Numbered from the stretch's first letter, positions 8,791 to 34,343 are shown. The stretch: DNA of 38,303 nt from Anaerolineales bacterium (GCA_046541755.1 JBKHCQ010000001.1:1-38303); one strand, 5' to 3'. The notes: generated by a model not told the origin, from the letters alone. Translations and numbers: made by a program.

Positions 8791-10008
8791 ATGGCTAAGG
8801 AGACTTTTGAGCGCACGAAGCCCCATGTCAATGTTGGCACCATTGGACACATTGATCACGGCAAAACGACGCTGACCGCTGCAATTACCCGCACGTTGGC
8901 CCTCAAAGGATGGGCGGACTTCCGGGGATATGATGATGTCGCAAAAGCTGACGCGAAGATGTTCCGTCGGGATGCGACCAAGATCTTGACCGTGGCGATT
9001 TCCCACGTCGAGTACGAGACGGAAAACCGTCACTACGCGCACGTGGATTGCCCCGGACACCGCGACTACATCAAAAACATGATCACCGGTGCGGCGCAGA
9101 TGGACGGCGCGATCCTGGTTGTGTCCGCGGTCGACGGGCCGATGCCTCAGACTCGCGAACACATCTTGTTGGCGCGTCAGGTTGAGGTCCCCGCAATTGT
9201 GGTCTTCTTGAACAAGGTCGATTTGATGGATGACCCAGAGCTATTGGAGCTGGTCGACCTGGAGATTCGCGAGCTGTTGAGCAGCTATCAGTTCCCCGGC
9301 GACGAGACCCCCATTGTGCAAGGGTCAGCGTTAAAAGCACTGAATTGCGAGGATGATGACCCCGACGCCGAACCCTATCAGCCGATTTGGGAGCTGATGC
9401 GGGTGGTGGATGAGTACATCCCCACGCCCGAACGCGACGAGGACAAGCCCTTCTTAATGCCCATCGAGGACGTCTTCTCGATCAAGGGACGTGGTACGGT
9501 GGTCACCGGGCGCGTTACCCGTGGTACGATGCGACCCAATACACCAGTTGAGATCGTGGGCTTGAACGAGGACCCCATCTCGACCGTGGTGACATCCATG
9601 GAGATGTTCCACAAAATCTTGGAAGAAGTGCGCGCAGGCGATAATGCCGGCTTGCTCTTGCGAGGTGTTGGTAAGGATGAAGTGGGCCGTGGTATGGTGG
9701 TTGCTAAACCTGGGTCCATCCATGCGAAGCGGAAGTTTGAGGCCGAGGTCTACGTCCTGCAGAAGGACGAGGGCGGACGGCACAAACCCTTCTTCACGGG
9801 ATACAAGCCGCAGTTCTACATCGGTACAATGGATGTGACCGGTGAGGTAACCTTGTCAGAGGATGTGAAGATGGTGATGCCTGGGGATAACACGATGATG
9901 AAGGTCGAGTTAATCACCCCGGTGGCGCTTGAGGCTGGTTCCCGATTCGCGATCCGTGAAGGTGGCCTGACCGTTGGCGCTGGCGTTATCACCAGAGTAA
10001 TCGAGTAG
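8791..10008 (+). CDS. tuf: Elongation factor Tu (with a non-canonical switch-I segment)
   Basis: 405 aa: [48 protein letters not shown] and a canonical C-terminal domain. The usual D-x-APEE-x-x-RGITI block is replaced by [24 protein letters not shown]. Confidence 0.93.
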
Positions 10009-10030
10009 CCCGTTCTAAATCAGGTGGTTT

Positions 10031-10339
10031 ATGACAAAACAACGGATTCGTATTCGGCTCAAAGCCTATGATCATCGGATTCTAGATGAATCCGCTCGGC
10101 GTATCGTCGAGGCGGCGGAGCGCACTGGCGCACGGGTTGCTGGCCCAGTTCCACTGCCGACCAAGATTGAGCGCTTTACGGTGCGACGTTCTCCATTTAT
10201 CGATAAGGACAGTCACGAGCACTTCGAAATCCGCACGCATAAGCGTTTAATCGATATTCAAGAGCCGGATTCGAAAACTATTGATACCCTGATGCGGCTG
10301 AACATGCCCGCCGGGGTTGACATCGAGATTAAGCTGTAA
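10031..10339 (+). CDS. rpsJ: 30S ribosomal protein S10
   Basis: 102 aa: [24 protein letters not shown]...GPVPLPT...[28 protein letters not shown]. Confidence 0.97.
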
Positions 10340-10469
10340 ACGCTTAGGGCTAAGGAGAAGCTAACTTTCCCATTTGGAAATCTGCATGTAGTCGTAAAAC
10401 CGGGTAAGTTATTTACTGCGCACTCCTTAGCTACGAGAAAATCAATACCGCTTTTAGGTTGCTTGATCT

Positions 10470-10520
10470 TACCCCCCTGGTCTTGAACTTGCCGTTATTG
10501 GGGTTTGGGCCAGGGGGGTA
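10470..10520 (+). other. Stem-loop (11-bp perfect stem TACCCCCCTGG / CCAGGGGGGTA, 29-nt loop) inside the unusual rpsJ-rplC spacer
   Basis: Read directly: 10470-10480 pairs with 10510-10520. Confidence 0.4.
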
Positions 10521-10680
10521 GTGTGAGCGGTAAACTTAGGCCTAACCAGGTGAATTCTTTGTACAATAAACAGGCCAGGATTTGATGTTCAAGCCTGTTA
10601 GTTGTAGCTCTATCACGATAGGGATGATGCGACGTTAATCAATAAACGGTCGTTGGCAGTCCCTCGGAGGTAAATGATTT

Positions 10681-11334
10681 ATGAGAGGTATTTTAGGTAA
10701 GAAGGTCGGAATGACCCAGGTTTTCCAGGAAGACGGCTCGGCCGTGCCGGTCACCGTAATCGAAGCCGGGCCGTGTTATGTGACCCAGGTTCGTACCGAA
10801 GAGCGTGATGGTTATCGCGCGGTTCAACTCGGATACGAGTTGGCTAAAGAGAAGCACCTCACGAAGGGGCAACTGGGCCACTTGGATCAAGCTGGCGTTT
10901 CCCCGCTGCGCTATCTGCGCGAAATACGAATTCGCGAGGATGAGGCTTTCGAGTTAGGGCAGGAGGTGCTGGTAGATATTTTCGAACCGGGTGAGCGAGT
11001 AGATGTAGTAGGTAAATCGAAGGGGCGTGGTTTTGCAGGCGTTGTGAAGCGTTATGGCTTCGCTGGCGGCCCTAAAACCCATGGCCAATCTGATCGTCAT
11101 CGTGCGCCAGGCTCCATCGGCGCGTGCGCGTCACCGGGCCGGGTTTGGAAGGGACAGCGCATGCCGGGCCGGATGGGCGGCAAGCGTGTGACCTCGCAGA
11201 ATATCGAGGTTGTCTTGGTGGACCCGGATCGCAACCTTCTGGCCGTCAAGGGCAGTGTGCCCGGCCCGAAGGGGGGCTTCGTGATCGTCAAAGAAGCTCG
11301 AAAGCAACGGGTTCGAAAGGGAGGTATTAAGTAG
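10681..11334 (+). CDS. rplC: 50S ribosomal protein L3
   Basis: [15 protein letters not shown]... 217 aa. Confidence 0.97.
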
Positions 11335-11336
11335 CC

Positions 11337-11969
11337 ATGCGGGTAGCAGTAATGAATATGCAAGGCGAACAAGTAGACGAGATTGAACTGCACGCTGATA
11401 TCTTTGAGGCGACCGTCAATGTGCCCTTAATGCATCAAGCTATGGTTCGTCAATTGGCGAATCAGCGCGCCGGTACCCACAAGACGAAGACGCGAAGCGA
11501 GAACAACCGTTCCAAGTCCAAGTGGTATCGGCAGAAGGGAACAGGGCGCGCCCGGCACGGCAGCCGGAATGCTCCTATCTTCGTAGGCGGCGGTATCGCC
11601 CATGGGCCGATGCCGCGCAGCTACGATAAGAAGATGCCGCGCAAGATGCGACGCGCTGCGTTACGTTCAGCGTTGTCCGTCAAAGCTGCGGAGCAAGAAA
11701 TGATCGTGGTGGATAATCTGACAATGCCGGCGCCTAAGACCAAGGAAATGGTTCGGGTGTTGAAGAACTTAGCGGCATCTGACAAGAAAGTCCTCATCCT
11801 GTTGCCAGATGCCAACGAGTCGGTTGAGTTATCGGGGCGGAACTTGCCCAATGTGAATATATTGCGCGCTCAATACTTGAATATTCGAGACCTGTTGGTC
11901 GCTGATTTGGTCATCGTGCCGTTGAGTGCCTTAGAAGTCATTGAATCGTTCTTGGGCCGGGCGGCCTAA
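11337..11969 (+). CDS. rplD: 50S ribosomal protein L4
   Basis: 210 aa: ...[12 protein letters not shown]...[13 protein letters not shown]... Confidence 0.96.
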
Positions 11970-27101: not shown

Positions 27102-27422
27102 TTACAGATGAGGTTTCAGGGCCTTCTCCAGTTGCTCCTCCGTCTTATTCCCCACCATACGATGGACTTCCTCCCCGTCCTTGAAGAGGATCATCGTGGG
27201 AATGTTCATCACGCTGTACTCAGTCGCCAGCTTGGACTCTTCGACATTGGCCTTGACGACCTTGAGCTTTCCCGCCATCTTTGGAGCAAATTTTTCCAGC
27301 GTGGGGCCGAGCGCGCGACAGGGTGGACACCACTCTGCCCAGAAATCGACCAGCACCGGCAATGAAGCGTTAACAACCTCTTCCTCAAAGTTTTCTTTTG
27401 TGATTGCCGTCAATTCTCCCAT
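27102..27422 (-). CDS. trxA: Thioredoxin with a WCPPC active site
   Basis: 106 aa: ...LPVLVDFWAEWCPPCRALGPTLEKFA...NIPTMILFKDGE... Confidence 0.93.
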   Translation of the reverse strand: MGELTAITKENFEEEVVNASLPVLVDFWAEWCPPCRALGPTLEKFAPKMAGKLKVVKANVEESKLATEYSVMNIPTMILFKDGEEVHRMVGNKTEEQLEKALKPHL

Positions 27423-27500: not shown

Positions 27501-28235
27501 TCAAGTCAGATGTTTTGTGGCAGTGATCAAAAAGAATGGCAGATGTACCACCTGCGACCACGACCCTGTAAGCGTCTTGGCTTGGCGCTCGATGTGATCG
27601 AGTTGGGCGCGCTCTTCTGGGGTGAGGGGCAGCCCGCGCAATAGATCAAAGCGCTGGGTGGCCGGCGGGCGCAGCGAGTCGAAGAGATCGACCCGCACCT
27701 CGAAGCCCTGCTCGGCGCACAGGCCGGGGAACTTGCGCCCCACCTGTGGATCGGCGCCCGCGCGCTGTAGCCCCGCGATCCACAACTCGCGGGTGGCGAT
27801 CTCTGACGGATGTTCCATCATCCCGCCGTAGTCCGGCGCCAGTGCGATCCACACGCCGTCGGCCATCAGAACGCGCCAGACCTCCCGCACAGCAGCCGCG
27901 ACGTCGTCGATCCAGAGCGTGGTCAGTTGGGAGAAGACGAGATCGAAGTGGGCCGCTCGAAAGGGCAACCGCCGGGCGTCGCCGCCGACTAAAAGCGTGC
28001 CCTCGGTCTGGATTTCGCCCAGAGCCGCGACCGCGCGATCTAAGGCGATGACCGCGCCCTCGGCGCGGCGCACCAACTCGGCGGTGACGGCGCCGCGCCC
28101 CGCGCCCAGATCCAGAACGCGCCGCCGGCGTGCGATGTGGATGCGCCGCAGAAGGCGCGCGCGGGCCGGCGCCAACCACTCGGCCTGATGCGCCAACAGC
28201 GCCGCCGAGGGCGCGGCGGAAGTCGAGGACATCAT
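27501..28235 (-). CDS. Class I SAM-dependent methyltransferase (start trimmed to ATG 28235, 7 nt after the upstream stop)
   Basis: VLDLGAGRGAVTAEL (motif I GxGxG), ...VIALD..., ...FDLVFSQLTTLWIDD..., ...VLMADGVWIA. The track start at 28313 overlaps the upstream gene. Confidence 0.85.
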   Translation of the reverse strand: MMSSTSAAPSAALLAHQAEWLAPARARLLRRIHIARRRRVLDLGAGRGAVTAELVRRAEGAVIALDRAVAALGEIQTEGTLLVGGDARRLPFRAAHFDLVFSQLTTLWIDDVAAAVREVWRVLMADGVWIALAPDYGGMMEHPSEIATRELWIAGLQRAGADPQVGRKFPGLCAEQGFEVRVDLFDSLRPPATQRFDLLRGLPLTPEERAQLDHIERQAKTLTGSWSQVVHLPFFLITATKHLT

Positions 28236-28242
28236 CGTGTCG

Positions 28243-30135
28243 CTATCTGCCGCCGCCCGCGCAGGCGCACGCGCAAGCACACCCGGCGCACGCGCACGCG
28301 CATCCACTCCCACCGCCGCTGTCGCCGCTCTTCGAGGATTCCATCAGCGCGGTGAAGACATCGCCCGTGACCTTATCCACGCCGCTGAGATCGACGACGC
28401 CGCCCTTGACTTGGGGCGCTTGCAAGGAGCCAGGCAGGATCGCGGCGGCCATGCCGCCCATCGTGCTCTCGGCCCAGCCGGCAAATGAGGCGCCCACGTC
28501 GCCAAAGGTCGTGCGCCCGCCGCCGCTGCTGCTCTTGCCGCCGCCTATCGAAGGGCCGCCGCTGCTTGTCGCGGGGCGCATGGCGTGGCGCGCCCAGATC
28601 GGCCAATAGTGATGGCCGTGGTGGGTCATGACGGTGGGGTACTCCTCGTTCATCATCACCCACGGCAGGTACTTATCCAGATATTTCTCCCGCTGCTCGA
28701 TCTCGCCGATGGACGACGCCTGTTTCATCGCCCGGTCCATCACCCGGCGATAATAATCCTGCGTGTCGGAGAGATCAAAGCCCTTCATCTTGGCGGCCGC
28801 GATCTTGATCAGCCACTCCATCGGCTTACTGAAATCGATCTCCTGCACCGGCTTGTCCGAGTGCTGCTCGATGAGATCTAAGAAGCGATCCTCATAGCTG
28901 TGGACGACGGTCCCCTTGCGTTGCGCGACGTTTTGGCGATAGGCGCGGCGTTCCTTGATGGTGTCCAAGTCCGATTGGTCCATTACCTTGAAATCCTCGG
29001 CGACCTTGACCTGGAGCGGATCGGCCTGCTCTTGCTCTAAAAGGCCCTTCTCCAAGAGGCCGAAGATCACCAGGGTGAGCACTTTGTTGAGCGGCATCTC
29101 CAGAATGATCGCCGCCTCGGGCGCTGTCAGCCCGCGCTTGATGCCGCCGCCCTCGACCTCGGCAATCGCCGGCAGGTAAGTGCGCTTCTTGCGCTTGCCC
29201 TTGTGTTTCCGCAGGGTGGTTTCATTGAAGAGGGTGAGCGCGATTAGAATTGGGATGCTGAAGAGTACCATCAGCGGGCCGATGAAAAAGAGGAAAACCG
29301 CGCCGCCCAGCAGCAGGACGTAGACGGTGCAGCCGGTGCCGCCCGTGAATCGGAAGAAGAGGAAGCTAAGGAGGGCGATGTTGAACGCGCCCAGCATCAG
29401 ATAGACCATCGGGTTGTCGGTGAGCCATTTGTTAGTCAGTTGGAAGATGTTCATCGTGATGACGTTCTGCATCACGCGCTTGGGGAAGGAAACGCCGACC
29501 AGATGCTCCCGCGTGATTTTGGTCTCCGGCCATTCCCAGAGCGCGACGACGCGGTCGTTAAAGAGGGCCTTGTTGGTAAATTCCTCTTTCTGATAGACGA
29601 CCTCATCCGGCTCGACGCCTTCGGGGATGTGGATGGCCAGTTGGAGATGGGTCGTGCCCCGCACCAAGTCGCTATCGAACCACGTGGGCGTGATCTGGAG
29701 CGAGGCTTTCTCTTTGTCCGTGGTATCTTGATAGACCATATCGGGCATCGTGAACTCGAAGTGAAGTGTGCCCTGCTCGCCACGCCCGATCTCCTGGCCG
29801 TCGAGATGTACCTCCACGCCGGTATCGATGTATTCGGATGTGCGAATATCCGTCAGCGGTTCCCCATCGATGGAGGCGCTCATATTGCCGATGTCGTAAT
29901 TATCGTGTGGCGTCCCGATGTCCACCACGTCGATGGGGTCGCCGTGATTTTCGAAGGTGATGTCATAGACGATGCGGACGGAGGCGTCGGGCTGGACGTA
30001 GACCTGCATCTGCATTTGGGGGACGGCGAAGCTGTAGCTTTGCGCCAGTATGGGATTCCCAACCAGCGTGAGCAGTAGCACAATCACCGGGATGAGCGCG
30101 AGATGTCGTAAGCTTCTCTTCATGTTCATTTTCAT
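28243..30135 (-). CDS. DUF2207-like polytopic membrane protein with a Gly/Ser-rich region and a C-terminal alternating Cys-Ala tail (GCACACAGCACACACAGGGR)
   Basis: 630 aa. It has an N-terminal signal/anchor (LALIPVIVLLLTLVGNPILA) and a beta-rich ectodomain with a DUF2207-like opening (YSFAVPQMQMQVYVQPDASVRIVYDITFEN...). Three hydrophobic helices span about aa 245-310 and are followed by KHKGKRKKR. A soluble domain of about 300 aa follows, then GGPSIGGGKSSSGGG...SGDSGGGSG and the Cys-Ala tail. ATGA overlap with the upstream gene. Confidence 0.75.
   Translation of the reverse strand: MKMNMKRSLRHLALIPVIVLLLTLVGNPILAQSYSFAVPQMQMQVYVQPDASVRIVYDITFENHGDPIDVVDIGTPHDNYDIGNMSASIDGEPLTDIRTSEYIDTGVEVHLDGQEIGRGEQGTLHFEFTMPDMVYQDTTDKEKASLQITPTWFDSDLVRGTTHLQLAIHIPEGVEPDEVVYQKEEFTNKALFNDRVVALWEWPETKITREHLVGVSFPKRVMQNVITMNIFQLTNKWLTDNPMVYLMLGAFNIALLSFLFFRFTGGTGCTVYVLLLGGAVFLFFIGPLMVLFSIPILIALTLFNETTLRKHKGKRKKRTYLPAIAEVEGGGIKRGLTAPEAAIILEMPLNKVLTLVIFGLLEKGLLEQEQADPLQVKVAEDFKVMDQSDLDTIKERRAYRQNVAQRKGTVVHSYEDRFLDLIEQHSDKPVQEIDFSKPMEWLIKIAAAKMKGFDLSDTQDYYRRVMDRAMKQASSIGEIEQREKYLDKYLPWVMMNEEYPTVMTHHGHHYWPIWARHAMRPATSSGGPSIGGGKSSSGGGRTTFGDVGASFAGWAESTMGGMAAAILPGSLQAPQVKGGVVDLSGVDKVTGDVFTALMESSKSGDSGGGSGCACACAGCACACACAGGGR
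28258..28303 (-). repeat. Coding microrepeat (TGC-GCN)n that specifies 7 Cys alternating with Ala/Gly; includes an 18-nt perfectly alternating purine/pyrimidine tract (28286-28303)
   Basis: Codon-by-codon read: Cys codons at 28261, 28267, 28273, 28279, 28288, 28294 and 28300 (plus-strand 'gca'/'aca'). Confidence 0.85.
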
Positions 30136-31499
30136 TCGATACCTCCTGTCTGCGCGTCAGATTCATCTTCTGTATGCTCCGTATCCATCACCGGAATTTG
30201 AAGATCGGCCGGATCCGGATACTCGAACTGTTCATTGTACGTCAGGGGCGGCTCGACCTTCTCGCGATAGATGCGGAAGGCGTCGTGCTGCCAGATAGTC
30301 TCCCAATCGTCTTTTAGAATGTTGCCGACGCTCTGAATCGGGCCGCGCGAGGGGATGACCTCGCCGTTGGGTTCGACGCGCACCGCCGTATCCTCGGTAC
30401 AGCGCGGCCCCTGCCGGACCTGTGCAGCCAGCGGAATCTCGGGGCGGCGCGGCATCGGAGGCGCCCAGAGGAAGCGCATCTGCGTCTGCGTCGCGGCCTC
30501 CTCCACCTGCGCCTCGAGCTGCGGCAGCGCCGCCACCGCGAGCGCATCATCTTTCTCCTCTGACTTCTCTGACCACTTCTCTGACGTCGGCTCCTCAGTA
30601 AGAACATAGGCCACGAAGGCGATGTTGTCCACGCCCAATTCAGCCATCTCCTCGACGGTCGCCTCCAACTCCTGCGCGGTGCGTTGCGTGAGGGGCATCT
30701 CGGCGATGGCACAGATTTCGTTGGCCTCCAGCCAGTCGAAGAGGGCGGTGGCCGCTGCGTGATCTCCCGCGCCACAGAGCGCATCATGCAGCGCGGGATC
30801 GGTGGCCGCGTAGAGCACGGTCACGTGATCCACACCCGCCATCATCACATCCTGGAGCAGTTCCTCGTCCCAGAGATCGGTCGCGCGACCTCGCACGCCG
30901 GCGATCATTCCCAGATCCTCCGCCAATTCGATGGCGCGGATCAAATCGCTGCGCTCGAATTCCTCCGGCGCCAGGACGGTGACGTTGGGGATGCCCACCT
31001 CCCAGAGTCGACGTAGCAGTGGCGTCATCCGGGTCGGATCGGCGAGCGGCACGCTGGCCTGGAGCGGCGCGATCAACTGCGCTTCGTAGGGCGAGAAGGC
31101 GGCGTCATTGAGCGTGAAGAGCGGGTAGGCGTCGCGAGGGTTGGTGATCTGCCGGATGAGGCCGGTGACTTGCGCAATGTCCGTGCGCATCTGTTCCTCA
31201 GCGCCGCCCTCGAAATGGGCTTGCAGGCGATGGAGGATCTCGTTTTCATCTTGGCCGTCCAACAGCCCCTTGGCGATCACGGCGCCGCTGGGGGAGAGTT
31301 GGGCGGCCGCCGCCGCGTTGGCGATCAACAGGCCGCTGCCGTCGCGCTCGACCCGCAGATGGAAGCGCGTGTACATCCCATCGGCCTCCTCCAGGGCGTG
31401 ATAGAGGCCCGGCTCGACGGGCGGCCCGCTCTCCGGCTCGTCGCGCTCGATGCTGAAGATGCGCTCCCAAAAATCCTTGATTAGTTCTTGAATGTTCAT
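30132..31499 (-). CDS. Pseudo-radical-SAM paralog: PqqD/RRE-like N-domain + rSAM-like barrel without CxxxCxxC + degenerate SPASM-like C-terminus (start trimmed to ATG 31499)
   Basis: 455 aa starting MNIQELIKDFW, behind AGGAGGGAG. The N-domain (PGLYHALEEADGMYTRFHLRVERDGSGLLIANAAAAAQLSPSGAVIAKGLLDG) aligns by eye with the N-domain of the upstream rSAM enzyme. The protein has only 3 Cys, none in a cluster motif. The tail VRVEPNGEVIPSRGPIQSVGNILKDDWETIW mirrors the SPASM segment IEPNGDVLPCQSYYVTAGNLLTDPWDEIW but lacks its Cys. Confidence 0.75.
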   Translation of the reverse strand: MNIQELIKDFWERIFSIERDEPESGPPVEPGLYHALEEADGMYTRFHLRVERDGSGLLIANAAAAAQLSPSGAVIAKGLLDGQDENEILHRLQAHFEGGAEEQMRTDIAQVTGLIRQITNPRDAYPLFTLNDAAFSPYEAQLIAPLQASVPLADPTRMTPLLRRLWEVGIPNVTVLAPEEFERSDLIRAIELAEDLGMIAGVRGRATDLWDEELLQDVMMAGVDHVTVLYAATDPALHDALCGAGDHAAATALFDWLEANEICAIAEMPLTQRTAQELEATVEEMAELGVDNIAFVAYVLTEEPTSEKWSEKSEEKDDALAVAALPQLEAQVEEAATQTQMRFLWAPPMPRRPEIPLAAQVRQGPRCTEDTAVRVEPNGEVIPSRGPIQSVGNILKDDWETIWQHDAFRIYREKVEPPLTYNEQFEYPDPADLQIPVMDTEHTEDESDAQTGGIE

Positions 31500-31518
31500 G
31501 TAAAACTCCCTCCTGAAT

Positions 31519-32988
31519 TTATGATTGGACGGCCTGCGTTGCTTGCGGAACGCGCGCGCCGGCTCGACCGCAACCCCGTTCGGGCGCGCCGATCTGTTGC
31601 GCCTCGCGCTCCAGCCGGCAGCCGCCGCCGCACATCGGTAGATCGGGGCAATCCCAGCATTTGCGGGGCAATCCCGCCGCCTCCGGGTTCTCCTCGCGAT
31701 CCCGGAAGCTGCGGAAAAGCGCGCTGTTCCAAATCTCATCCCACGGATCGGTGAGGAGGTTGCCCGCTGTGACGTAATAGGATTGGCAAGGGAGGACATC
31801 GCCATTTGGCTCGATGCACATCGAATACTCGGCGGCGTTGCAGCGCTTGGGATCCAGCCCCAGCGCGACCGGCGAGAAGCGACAGTACTCCGTCACCGTG
31901 TACCAGAGGAAGCGCATTCCCAGCGCCTCGGCGCGCTTGCGTACCTGGATCAGCAGCGGCGCCATCTCCTCGGCGGGGATCGCGTCCGGCGTCGCGAGGC
32001 CGCCGCCGGCGTAGATCATCCCGTTCATCGCGAAGGTCCGCACCCCCAGATCGTACAGAAAATCGACGATCTCCACAGCGTGCGCTTGATTCTGGCGGGT
32101 CAGCGTGGTGTTGGTGATGGTGTGGATGCCGCTCGCAAGCGCGTTCTCGATTCCCTGGACGGTCTCCGCGAAGGCCTGCGATCCCGGCAGGCCGACCATC
32201 GCGTTGTGCTCCGCCGCCCGGCACGACTCCAGCGTGATCTGCACGTGATTGAGGCCCGCCTCGGCCAGCGAGGACGCCAGCGCGGGGCGCGCCAGCCGTC
32301 GCCCGTTGGTGTTCATCCCCACGATGTGCCCCTGCGCGTCGGCGTGGCGGATGATCTCCTCCAGGTCGGGATGCAGCGTCGGCTCGCCGCCGGTGAGAAT
32401 CACGTGCGGGACGCCGATCTCGTTCAGCTTATCGAAGACGCGGCGCCAATCCGCCAGGGAGAGCGTGGACATCGCGAAGCGTTCGCCGGGGTTGTAGCAA
32501 TGAGGGCAGGCATTGTTGCAGGCGTAGGTGAGCGCCACATCAACCTTGTAGGGGGCGTTCGCGGGCGCGCTGAAGAGCGGGCGAAAGTCCACCCGGTCGG
32601 CAATTGCGCAGATGCGACATCCGCCCTCCGGCGCGCGCAACGTCGCCACCATCTCGTAGATCTTGGTCACGTCGCGCGCCAACTGCGCATCGGCCACATC
32701 CACATCGGTGAAGCGCCGGGCCATCCGGGCGCGCGCCTCCGCCGCCGGGATTTCATCCAGGGCCAGCTTGGCGATCTCCGTTGCTGTGGCGTTGAGGTGG
32801 ATGACGTCGGTGACGTCGATGAAGAGCGCGCTGTGACCCTCCGGCTGGACGCGCAGGTGGATGCGCCGCTCCCCGTCCTCCGGGGCAATCCGGTAGGTGT
32901 AGAGGCCTGGCGCCGGCGGGGACGGCGCGGGCTTGAGCCACGATTGCATCGCCGCCCGCAGGCGCGCCCACCAAGGTTGCGTGGTCAT
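31519..32988 (-). CDS. Radical SAM / SPASM-domain enzyme with an N-terminal PqqD-like RiPP-recognition element
   Basis: 489 aa. CNNACPHCYN (CxxxCxxC) is encoded at 32497-32520. The GGEPTL SAM-binding motif is present. SPASM signature: C-x-AEYSMCIEPNGDVLPC...GN...C-WDC-x5-CGGGC. N-terminal about 110 aa: GLYTYRIAPEDGERRIHLRVQPEGHSALFIDVTDVIHLNATATEIAKLALDE. Confidence 0.9.
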   Translation of the reverse strand: MTTQPWWARLRAAMQSWLKPAPSPPAPGLYTYRIAPEDGERRIHLRVQPEGHSALFIDVTDVIHLNATATEIAKLALDEIPAAEARARMARRFTDVDVADAQLARDVTKIYEMVATLRAPEGGCRICAIADRVDFRPLFSAPANAPYKVDVALTYACNNACPHCYNPGERFAMSTLSLADWRRVFDKLNEIGVPHVILTGGEPTLHPDLEEIIRHADAQGHIVGMNTNGRRLARPALASSLAEAGLNHVQITLESCRAAEHNAMVGLPGSQAFAETVQGIENALASGIHTITNTTLTRQNQAHAVEIVDFLYDLGVRTFAMNGMIYAGGGLATPDAIPAEEMAPLLIQVRKRAEALGMRFLWYTVTEYCRFSPVALGLDPKRCNAAEYSMCIEPNGDVLPCQSYYVTAGNLLTDPWDEIWNSALFRSFRDREENPEAAGLPRKCWDCPDLPMCGGGCRLEREAQQIGAPERGCGRAGARVPQATQAVQS

Positions 32989-33015: not shown

Positions 33016-33357
33016 CTACCACTTAGGCGCTTCTTCGATCTGGTACGTGGAGCCGCAGTAGGGGCAATGGACAAAAATCGCGCCGGCCTTGACCTCCAGC
33101 GCGTCCCGATCCAACGTGCCGCCGCAACTGCGGCATTTCATCTGCTCTAAATTGACATCACCGGAGAGATCGATCTTCTGGATCATCGTCGTCTCCGTCT
33201 TCTGCGGGCGCACCTGCGTGAGGTAGATCAACATGCCGGCGCTGGCTATCAAGATTACGCCCACGATGATCCATCCTATGCCTCCCGTTCCACCAACGAC
33301 GAACATCACGCCAAAGAAACCCAGCACCGCCGCGATCAGATAGGTCACAAGTTTCAT
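33016..33357 (-). CDS. Small membrane-anchored zinc-ribbon protein (two N-terminal TM helices + CxxC...CxxC)
   Basis: 113 aa: MKLVTYLIAAVLGFFGVMFVVGG...IIVGVILIASAGMLIYL...CRSCGGTLD...VHCPYCGSTY. Confidence 0.7.
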   Translation of the reverse strand: MKLVTYLIAAVLGFFGVMFVVGGTGGIGWIIVGVILIASAGMLIYLTQVRPQKTETTMIQKIDLSGDVNLEQMKCRSCGGTLDRDALEVKAGAIFVHCPYCGSTYQIEEAPKW

Positions 33358-33691
33358 ATTCGCACTCCTGGTTGTTTGAGAGTTATATTATGTACTACGT
33401 CATAAGGCATAGGAGGTTGCTCAGGGGAGAATAATGCGCTAACTGTAAGACATACTACAATAGCTTCGATAAAAAATCAAACCTGATGGGCGGTGGGAGC
33501 CTCGTGGTTGCTCTTAGAAGTGCCCGCGCTTTGGTGACTTTCGTAAGGTGTTGTACAATGAGGGTAGTATAGGTGCTCAATCTTATGTCGATTTTATCCG
33601 AATCCCCAGATCGGGGCAACGTGGTTCGCGTGTCCAAATACCTAAAATATCCGATAGACGTTCGAGGAAATCTATATAAACGGGAGATAAG

Positions 33692-34006
33692 ATGGCACTT
33701 AAGATTAAAGCGTATGAGGATAAACTTGCCGAGTTGTGTGTTGCCTATGGCGTCCAGCGATTAGAGGTGTTTGGCTCGGCAACCAGAGATGATTTTGATC
33801 CTCAGCAAAGCGACATGGATTTTCTGGTCGTCTTTGAAGATGCTCGCCCCCATGGCGCATTTGATCGTTATTTTGGCTTGAAAGAGGCCTTGGAGCGGCT
33901 TTTTGAACGTTCTGTTGACTTGGTTGAAGAAAAAGCGATCAAGAACCCGTATTTTCGACAGGCGATCTTGCGAGATAGGATGGTAATCTATGGAACTGGC
34001 GGCTAA
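33692..34006 (+). CDS. mntA: MNT-type nucleotidyltransferase antitoxin (type VII TA)
   Basis: 104 aa with FGSATRDDFDPQQSDMDFLV (GSx10-11 D-x-D NTase motif). It overlaps the HepT gene by 17 nt. Confidence 0.85.
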   Translation: MALKIKAYEDKLAELCVAYGVQRLEVFGSATRDDFDPQQSDMDFLVVFEDARPHGAFDRYFGLKEALERLFERSVDLVEEKAIKNPYFRQAILRDRMVIYGTGG

Positions 34007-34343
34007 AAAGCTGGTCTATGATGTGGATCAGGCTGTCAATTTGATCACTGAATTTACAGCGGACAAAGAGTTTGAGGATTACGCAACGGATGTTATGTTG
34101 CGTTCCGCCGTTGAACGGCAATTTGAGATTGTTGGCGAAGCCCTCAACCGTTTGAAGCAGGTTGATATGCAATTGCTCTCGAGGATCAGTGATTACCATC
34201 GCATCATTGGCTTTCGAAACGTGCTTGCTCATGGGTATGATGTCGTCTCGGATGAGATTGTATGGGACATTATCCAGAACCGGCTGCCGCTGTTGCGTCA
34301 AGAGATCGATGAGATCAAGTGGGAAGCGGGTATAGCGGATTGA
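33990..34343 (+). CDS. hepT: HepT (DUF86/HEPN) RNase toxin
   Basis: 117 aa with FRNVLAHGYD (Rx4HxY HEPN motif). Confidence 0.85.
   Translation: MELAAKKLVYDVDQAVNLITEFTADKEFEDYATDVMLRSAVERQFEIVGEALNRLKQVDMQLLSRISDYHRIIGFRNVLAHGYDVVSDEIVWDIIQNRLPLLRQEIDEIKWEAGIAD

Follow-up and report, generated by a model that had tools for sequence, protein, structure and literature searches.

Pseudo-radical S-adenosylmethionine (pseudo-rSAM) proteins, such as those of the GG-Bacteroidales family IPR026418, are rSAM/SPASM homologs without the cluster cysteines; they are encoded beside a bona fide rSAM enzyme and a presumed target, and their function has not been shown (PMC10352776). We analyzed a 38,303-nucleotide stretch of DNA from an Anaerolineales bacterium (GCA_046541755.1 JBKHCQ010000001.1:1-38303), called the window below, in which a predicted active rSAM enzyme and a full-length paralog without the radical-SAM motif are encoded side by side, next to a large membrane protein that ends in an invariant Cys-Ala tail. 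The dead copy is maintained by purifying selection and, in the reading that we modestly favor, would act as a non-catalytic, substrate-dedicated docking subunit for maturation of the tail by the active enzyme. A first-pass annotation of the window had noted that pseudo-rSAM partners occur in a few other systems acting on peptides that are synthesized ribosomally and modified post-translationally (RiPPs), and they do exist as curated families, none with an assigned function. These include TIGR04347, which NCBIfam names as a pseudo-SAM/SPASM family of Haloarchaea, and TIGR04150, which we take to be the GG-Bacteroidales pseudo-rSAM model; Haft and Basu are said to have defined several pseudo-rSAM systems in 2011.

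The pair in the window resembles TIGR04347 and IPR026418 in that a dead rSAM/SPASM homolog lies beside a true rSAM enzyme and a presumed target, but it differs in its putative N-terminal RiPP recognition element (RRE), in its occurrence in Chloroflexota and in its tie to a 600-aa membrane protein instead of a short GG-leader peptide. The paralog is not a member of TIGR04347 (16.5 bits, cut-off 525), the GG-Bacteroidales pseudo-rSAM model was not among its NCBIfam matches at E ≤ 0.01, and the operon holds no short precursor gene. By prediction, both window proteins share the three-part RRE-rSAM-SPASM architecture of SuiB (5v1q), SkfB (6efn) and PqqE (6c8v), and CteB is another RiPP maturase of this kind with a solved structure. 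SuiB, SkfB and PqqE act alone or with the small PqqD on short precursors; the window pair instead has an inert full-length copy beside the active one, and its presumed substrate is a large membrane protein's tail. The division of labor that we propose, between a non-catalytic RRE protein and a catalyst, is like that of PqqD/PqqE and MftB/MftC, in which a stand-alone RRE protein binds the substrate before passing it to the catalyst, and like that of the YcaO cyclodehydratases, whose RRE-bearing E1-like or Ocin-ThiF-like partner is non-catalytic and itself a dead enzyme homolog. PqqD and MftB, however, are RRE-only proteins of ~90 aa, whereas here an enzyme scaffold of ~450 aa is kept and both partners carry a putative RRE. 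Maturation of full-length proteins by rSAM/SPASM enzymes is known from QhpD/QhpC and anSME. In the HXS system, HxsB, HxsC and HxsD mature HxsA at a repeat motif within a full-length protein, and both rSAM enzymes need their clusters (PMC13128918). The window locus is like HXS in its paired rSAM genes, its small accessory proteins and a repeat motif that sits in a real protein, not in an exported peptide; it is unlike HXS in that one rSAM protein is dead and in target motif, phylum and domain content.

The idea of a pseudo-rSAM partner is therefore of a known kind, already curated as TIGR04347 and IPR026418. New are a putative RRE kept by both proteins, the obligate link to a large membrane protein, a Cys-Ala tail that does not vary, a natural fusion, and a natural series of forms that, judged by their cysteine ligands, would be Fe-S-containing or Fe-S-free. 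Literature searches returned no description of the pseudo-rSAM family, the membrane protein or the tail, and no curated NCBIfam or Pfam family describes the five-gene system. Pseudo-rSAMs have been annotated in several systems, none with an assigned role, and the present pair is an unusually clean test case because direct live and dead paralogs share a putative recognition domain; because the dead copy always lies beside one defined protein, to which it is translationally coupled in the window and once fused; because natural variants occur with and without residual Fe-S ligands; and because the presumed target, a peptide of 17 residues, is without variation. Solving the system would show why a catalytically dead rSAM scaffold is kept, and would probably reveal a new membrane-protein modification that is widespread in Anaerolineae and related Chloroflexota, groups with almost no experimental biochemistry.

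Operon layout

Positions 30132-32988 of the window hold exactly two genes, both on the minus strand, which encode the rSAM enzyme and the pseudo-rSAM paralog. They belong to a compact minus-strand operon of five genes, given here in operon order:

33016..33357, minus strand: Zn-ribbon membrane-anchored protein, 113 aa, the operon's first gene (open reading frame [ORF] call), with two N-terminal transmembrane (TM) helices, a CxxC...CxxC pattern and weak matches to zinc-ribbon families
31519..32988, minus strand: predicted active rSAM enzyme with putative RRE, radical-SAM and SPASM parts, 489 aa (Pfam, NCBIfam, cysteine map)
30132..31499, minus strand: pseudo-rSAM paralog, 455 aa
28243..30135, minus strand: membrane protein, 630 aa
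28246..28302, minus strand: its C-terminal tail CACACAGCACACACAGGGR, followed by the stop codon; presumed modification site
27501..28235, minus strand: class I SAM-dependent methyltransferase, 244 aa (Methyltransf_11, 2.3e-15)

The gaps between successive genes are 27, 19, -4 and 7 nt, so that there is no room for a separate small precursor gene. The negative value is an ATGA overlap of the pseudo-rSAM stop codon with the membrane-protein ATG, and in the window a GGAGG lies within the end of the pseudo-rSAM gene; the real ATG of the methyltransferase is 7 nt past the membrane-protein stop codon. The mechanical ORF of the pseudo-rSAM gene (557 aa) extends to 31805, into the rSAM gene, while its real start is the ATG at 31499, located 8 nt after AGGAGGGAG and 19 nt past the rSAM stop. 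A RiPP cluster would comprise a short leader/core precursor with a protease and/or an exporter. Neither protease nor transporter was found in the conserved block by ORF calls, Pfam, NCBIfam or neighborhood comparison, and the sole candidate substrate is the 630-aa membrane protein. PADLOC returned for this locus only generic viperin-like rSAM matches and a weak methyltransferase match, which gives no support for a defense system.

Paralogy of the two proteins

In BLASTP, the rSAM enzyme and the pseudo-rSAM protein aligned with 98.6 bits (E = 3e-26, 25% identity) over residues 6-435 of the former and 10-418 of the latter (455-aa numbering), colinearly from the N-terminal domain through the SPASM hairpin. 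Comparison of the two family profiles gave a probability of 100% (E = 2e-51) over 408 colinear columns. The N-terminal and SPASM segments had been aligned by eye in the first-pass annotation; BLASTP reproduced both alignments, and each segment was significant on its own (z = 11.8 for the RRE segment and 22.2 for the SPASM segment, with 0 of 2,000 shuffles reaching the score in either case). The best curated family scored only 27 bits with the paralog, against the 98.6 bits of the pairwise alignment. By these scores the two proteins are each other's closest relatives, and the pair would best be explained by the ancient duplication of a peptide-modifying enzyme with RRE, radical-SAM and SPASM parts.

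The second copy had been described as full length and open, in keeping with its 455 aa and 408 aligned profile columns. The description of the pair as a tandem duplication fits the window, where the paralogs are adjacent, but not every locus. Among 80 genome loci centred on the paralog, the gap between the two genes ranged from 24 nt to 3.4 kb, often with unrelated genes in between, and 11 of the 49 loci with a full 7 kb of upstream sequence had no rSAM gene within that distance.

The upstream copy as predicted catalyst

The following parts were assigned in the rSAM enzyme:

32629-32910, minus strand: putative RRE, residues ~27-120
32497-32520, minus strand: CxxxCxxC motif, CNNACPHC, residues 157-164
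Residues 200-202: GGE motif
31570-31842, minus strand: seven-Cys SPASM region, residues 383-473

Pfam matched Radical_SAM (7.8e-27) and SPASM (1.3e-12), with a sub-threshold PqqD match at residues 59-110. The SPASM region is complete in its seven cysteines and contains CWDCPDLPMCGGGC at residues 444-457; the protein has 15 Cys in total. PqqE (6c8v) was the best solved relative by sequence (E = 3e-19). Scores against the 25 listed NCBIfam families (PqqE, MftC, AhbD, NirJ, ScmE/F, ACGX system, GeoRSP, AlbA and others) were all far under the curated cut-offs, the best being those for AhbD (120.9 bits, cut-off 500) and PqqE (116.4 bits, cut-off 381); TIGR04347 gave 110.8 bits (cut-off 525). This copy keeps every cofactor motif and is the predicted catalyst of the pair. 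All 17 aligned orthologs have an additional, invariant CxxC that is missing from the paralog; it lies at residues 124-127 (32608-32619, minus strand), after the RRE and before the radical-SAM core.

Motif loss and maintenance of the downstream copy

The corresponding parts of the pseudo-rSAM paralog are as follows:

31140-31418, minus strand: putative RRE, residues ~28-120
30465-31064, minus strand: partial TIM barrel, residues ~146-345
30252-30410, minus strand: SPASM remnant, residues 364-416
C-terminus: acidic, disordered

The BLASTP and profile alignments show that the ~20-residue loop with the CxxxCxxC motif has been deleted from the paralog, and TGGEPT of the rSAM enzyme aligns to LAPEEF, turning the SAM-binding GGE motif into APE. 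None of 119 full-length paralog homologs has a CxxxCxxC motif, so the paralog cannot bind the radical-SAM cluster, the [4Fe-4S] center that cleaves SAM. The window protein retains three Cys in total (242, 263 and 367), of which only C367 belongs to the seven SPASM positions, where it is the first Cys of the pattern CX9-15GX4C...CX2CX5CX3C...C for two auxiliary clusters, and its SPASM match (19.2 bits) is below the Pfam gathering score of 21.5.

The fold has been kept. An AlphaFold2 (AF2) model of the paralog had a mean predicted local distance difference test (pLDDT) score of 81.9, with values >90 across barrel residues 146-300, and predicts four strands and three helices at the N-terminus (strands 31-68, helices 70-119), a partial TIM barrel and a SPASM-type hairpin. 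Foldseek matched this model to PDB entries with E values from 1e-4 to 6.5e-11; the best match was SuiB (E = 6.5e-11), over the full length including the RRE, and SkfB, PqqE, viperin and MoaA also matched. The model and the Foldseek matches thus assign to the paralog the partial (beta/alpha)6 TIM barrel of the Radical_SAM fold, which Pfam Radical_SAM detected at E ≤ 0.01 in 14/63 members of the pseudo-rSAM family. By sequence, the family profile matched no PDB chain at E ≤ 0.01, and only the fold comparison succeeded.

Both copies had been credited with the same PqqD-like N-terminal domain. The two do align there, but the PqqD label itself is sub-threshold by sequence: PqqD (PF05402) scored 21.0 bits with the rSAM enzyme and 17.5 bits with the paralog against a gathering score of 23.4, and NCBIfam lasso_PqqD gave 21.5 bits against a cut-off of 70. 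At E ≤ 0.01, PqqD matched 30/63 pseudo-rSAM and 4/17 rSAM family members. We nevertheless assign a putative RRE, because the predicted strand/three-helix topology and the full-length SuiB match stand beside these scores. The strand region of this domain (residues 46-75) is the most conserved stretch of the paralog, with a mean column conservation of 0.8-0.9.

A protein search retrieved >370 homologs of the paralog, at 50-60% identity and of constant length, all from Chloroflexota-type metagenome-assembled genomes (MAGs) or metagenomes, and an exhaustive profile search gave 147 cluster representatives at E < 1e-30. These homologs carry the public labels 'radical SAM protein' or 'SPASM domain-containing protein', which are misleading for dead paralogs. 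Against the three closest orthologous loci, the paralog had a ratio of nonsynonymous to synonymous substitution rates (dN/dS) of 0.16-0.18, like its neighbors, the active enzyme (0.13-0.18) and the membrane protein (0.14-0.15). The dead copy is thus maintained and not decaying, which bears out the expectation of purifying selection on it.

Conserved gene neighborhood

The membrane-protein gene lies directly downstream of the pseudo-rSAM gene in 65/65 loci with enough sequence, so the pairing with a membrane protein to which the first-pass annotation drew attention is real and very tight. The methyltransferase gene comes next in 44 of the 55 loci with enough downstream sequence. An active rSAM gene is found upstream, in the same orientation, in 38 of the 49 loci with a full 7 kb, and the Zn-ribbon gene accompanies the rSAM gene in 51/57. 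At one further locus (L105), rSAM and Zn-ribbon genes occur with no pseudo-rSAM or membrane-protein gene within 10 kb. The 11 loci without a nearby rSAM gene and L105 indicate two modules that lie side by side in most cases, with exceptions.

In 28/80 loci, a gene of ~230 aa with a weak match to the MetH-activation (SAM-binding) domain lies directly upstream of the pseudo-rSAM gene (for example L016:6132-6818, L005:6219-6917 and L033:5069-5770, with 25 other loci); it is absent from the window and often lies beside a LiaF-like membrane protein. The complete system was also seen in two Candidatus Sumerlaeota bins and one Patescibacteria bin (L055, L057, L068), reflecting either spread beyond Chloroflexota or binning errors.

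The membrane protein and its Cys-Ala tail

The membrane protein has the following parts:

Residues up to ~216: signal peptide, then a beta-sandwich ectodomain (~34-216)
Residues ~228-313: three TM helices
Following part: cytosolic helical domain with an invariant EGGGIKRGLxxPE motif
C-terminal region: disordered, with conserved helices at residues 544-570 (28426-28506) and 582-600 (28336-28392), then a G/S linker and the tail

A model of the ectodomain resembles the M1 aminopeptidase N-domain and ribophorin-type oligosaccharyltransferase subunits. In Pfam, NCBIfam and PADLOC the protein belongs to no family, and a scan of 52 members at E ≤ 1 gave none either.

All homologs of the membrane protein end in CACAGCACACACAGGGR, usually after one extra CA and a variable Gly/Ser linker. 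The 93 copies from the 80 loci (L001-L080) agree in all of these last 17 residues, although the protein bodies are only ~50% identical. The tail codons (TGC/TGT, GCN, GGN, CGN/AGR) vary freely across the 93 copies, so the constraint is on the peptide and not on the DNA, and the tail is among the most extreme cases of peptide-level constraint seen in an otherwise ~50% identical protein. By the positive-inside rule the tail is predicted to be cytoplasmic, since a basic cluster follows the last TM helix, and it would therefore be reachable by soluble enzymes.

The 93 copies include a second, shorter membrane-protein paralog, which is found in tandem with the first at 24/80 loci (e.g., L005:8353-9972 and 10008-11879). 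The shorter copy is without the LSGVDKVTGD helix and keeps the FGDV..SFAGW helix and the identical tail. In the first copy at L007:8431-10101 the tail is read in a shifted frame, through a frameshift or an assembly error.

A second architecture and a natural fusion

A different arrangement, termed type II, was found at 13 metagenome loci centred on the rSAM gene (L111, L112, L116, L122, L123, L125, L126, L130, L132, L133, L137, L150 and L159; for example L150:9157-16273). Here the gene that follows rSAM on the same strand encodes a short membrane-protein paralog that has no tail. The Zn-ribbon gene, the tailed membrane protein and a dead paralog of another kind are on the other strand, and the methyltransferase gene lies upstream of the rSAM gene on the opposite strand. 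The tail has the form (CA)3-4 G (CA)3 GGGR. All five components therefore survive a complete reshuffle, as they recur in another order and on other strands. The type II dead paralog has 380-415 aa, 0-3 Cys, no CxxxCxxC motif and a shortened SPASM region. By profile comparison it is nearer to the active enzymes (E = 2.7e-64) than to the dead family of type I (E = 3.1e-42): the type II protein may be less derived, or it may have lost its motifs independently, so that the dead-paralog state may have arisen twice.

In two assemblies, the paralog and the membrane protein are naturally fused in a 948-aa protein (P0291, at L161:486-3332, and P0391). Paralog residues 1-334, which comprise the RRE and barrel without the SPASM remnant, are joined to the signal-anchor of the membrane protein, and the tail is intact. 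On the contig, the start of the fusion gene overlaps the stop of an active rSAM gene upstream, and a methyltransferase gene lies downstream. The order of parts gives a consistent topology, in which the pseudo-enzyme would lie in the cytosol, one TM helix would lead to the ectodomain, and three further TM helices would return the chain to a cytosolic tail. The type II loci and the fusion are two independent confirmations of the partnership.

Possible roles of the dead paralog

Taken together, these data suggest, with somewhat better than even chances in our estimate, that the dead copy is a non-catalytic, substrate-dedicated docking subunit for maturation of the tail by the active rSAM enzyme. 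In such a membrane-associated machine, the dead copy would use its RRE, possibly with the barrel cavity, to bind the co-translated membrane protein at the cytosolic C-terminal region, and would present or hold the invariant (CA)nG(CA)mGGGR tail for the active enzyme. The latter would carry out a radical modification of the Cys/Ala repeat, for which thioether cross-links are a guess. RRE-bearing SPASM enzymes that act on Cys-rich repeats typically make thioethers and, were the tail to fold back at its central Gly, each Cys on one arm would oppose an Ala on the other, a reading of the sequence that would fit this chemistry. The methyltransferase may act afterwards on the rSAM product, and the active enzyme may be anchored to the membrane by the Zn-ribbon protein. 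Complex formation between the proteins, the tail as substrate and the chemistry are what we infer here; the first-pass annotation's wording of the paralog's role, as a substrate chaperone, scaffold or heterodimer partner, would likewise fit the gene context and the one natural fusion. A wider picture, which we hold only tentatively, is of a Chloroflexota-wide housekeeping maturation in which a cluster-free pseudo-enzyme attached to its membrane-protein substrate feeds the tail to the active paralog. The cytosolic product would be a tail structure not seen before, for example a Cys-Ala thioether ladder or a templated metal-sulfur site.

Several observations weigh against a docking role. The RRE is sub-threshold by sequence, and the 11 loci without a nearby rSAM gene and L105 show that the two modules can be unlinked. 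The barrel of the paralog has conserved His and Asp residues (D224-H225, H238-D239 and D246), and the type II dead paralogs, alone among the pseudo-rSAM proteins, keep GGE together with a full-length loop; both features would allow non-radical catalysis. A CX2CX5CX3C motif in 93% of the relatives could point to an Fe-S-dependent role in most lineages.

This last point leads to the reading of the paralog as an Fe-S scaffold, or as a partner in redox reactions or electron transfer, that would support the active enzyme through a remaining auxiliary [4Fe-4S] cluster bound by this motif and would handle no substrate. CX2CX5CX3C and the first SPASM Cys are kept in 111/119 relatives (5 of the 7 SPASM Cys in most) and in most 50%-identity cluster representatives, and the SPASM Pfam model matches 60/63 family members. 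The proposal in the first-pass annotation that the second copy lost both its CxxxCxxC and its auxiliary-cluster cysteines therefore stands in full for the former (119/119), whereas loss of the latter is lineage-specific and not family-wide. It is complete in the window clade (7 sequences), P0075, at least 7 other cluster representatives, 13/13 type II proteins and the natural fusion. These lineages are still conserved and keep the same neighbors, which argues that Fe-S ligands are dispensable; moreover, no family member has the seventh SPASM Cys or the Gx4C Cys, so that neither auxiliary site would be fully liganded. We regard an Fe-S role as unlikely.

The paralog could instead be a new non-radical enzyme, with a SAM-binding, metal-dependent or lyase-type barrel that performs its own step on the tail. 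Its barrel is nearly as conserved as its RRE (mean column conservation 0.66 vs 0.70) and contains the invariant polar residues E191, D224, H238 and D246, the type II loop is full length and Cys-free beside its GGE, and the SAM-binding MetH-activation-like gene lies directly upstream at 28 loci. The DH/HD residues are nevertheless no sign of a new active site, because they were inherited from a PqqE-like ancestor (the rSAM enzyme and PqqE have NH/DH there), and NCBIfam, Pfam, PDB and Foldseek returned no family or structure match to another chemistry. A separate enzymatic activity thus seems improbable to us.

Still less probable is that two independent modules are adjacent only by history, with the Zn-ribbon protein and the rSAM enzyme acting on another substrate, and the pseudo-rSAM, membrane protein and methyltransferase working without radical chemistry. 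Linkage is indeed tighter within these modules (51/57 and 65/65) than between them (38/49), unrelated genes are often inserted between them, and L105 has the rSAM module alone. The two enzymes are, however, direct paralogs with the same N-terminal domain, all components recur together in the type II order, and at the fusion locus the end of the rSAM gene and the beginning of the fusion gene overlap. For the second gene, the missing catalytic motifs and the overlap of the mechanical 557-aa ORF with the rSAM gene might suggest a pseudogene in decay or an artefact of annotation, but either has next to no probability in view of its dN/dS of 0.16-0.18, >370 constant-length homologs, 147 cluster representatives, pLDDT of 82, and proper ribosome-binding site and start at 31499; simple gene decay is excluded.

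Genes flanking the operon

The operon lies in a chromosomal core region with rpoB, fusA, tuf, the S10-spc-alpha ribosomal operons, secY, rpoA and a MazG fusion, and the nearest relatives are Anaerolineales/Chloroflexota MAGs. A thioredoxin gene (27102-27422, minus strand) just downstream of the methyltransferase gene was considered and rejected as part of the system; it probably lies outside it, because only L001 and L003, the closest relatives, have it as a neighbor. Likewise rejected was a 60-aa ORF at 33455-33637 as a precursor, as it shows no conservation signal and lies outside the operon. Beside the operon promoter region, overlapping genes for an MNT-type nucleotidyltransferase and a HepT-like RNase (33692-34343, plus strand) are arranged in a way typical of a toxin-antitoxin pair. 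Beyond them, the segment 34489-38156 (plus strand) encodes a 519-aa protein with a TM segment, long Pro/Thr-rich stretches and no Pfam family and, downstream of it, a protein of 708 aa that has a peptidase domain of the C25 (gingipain) type.

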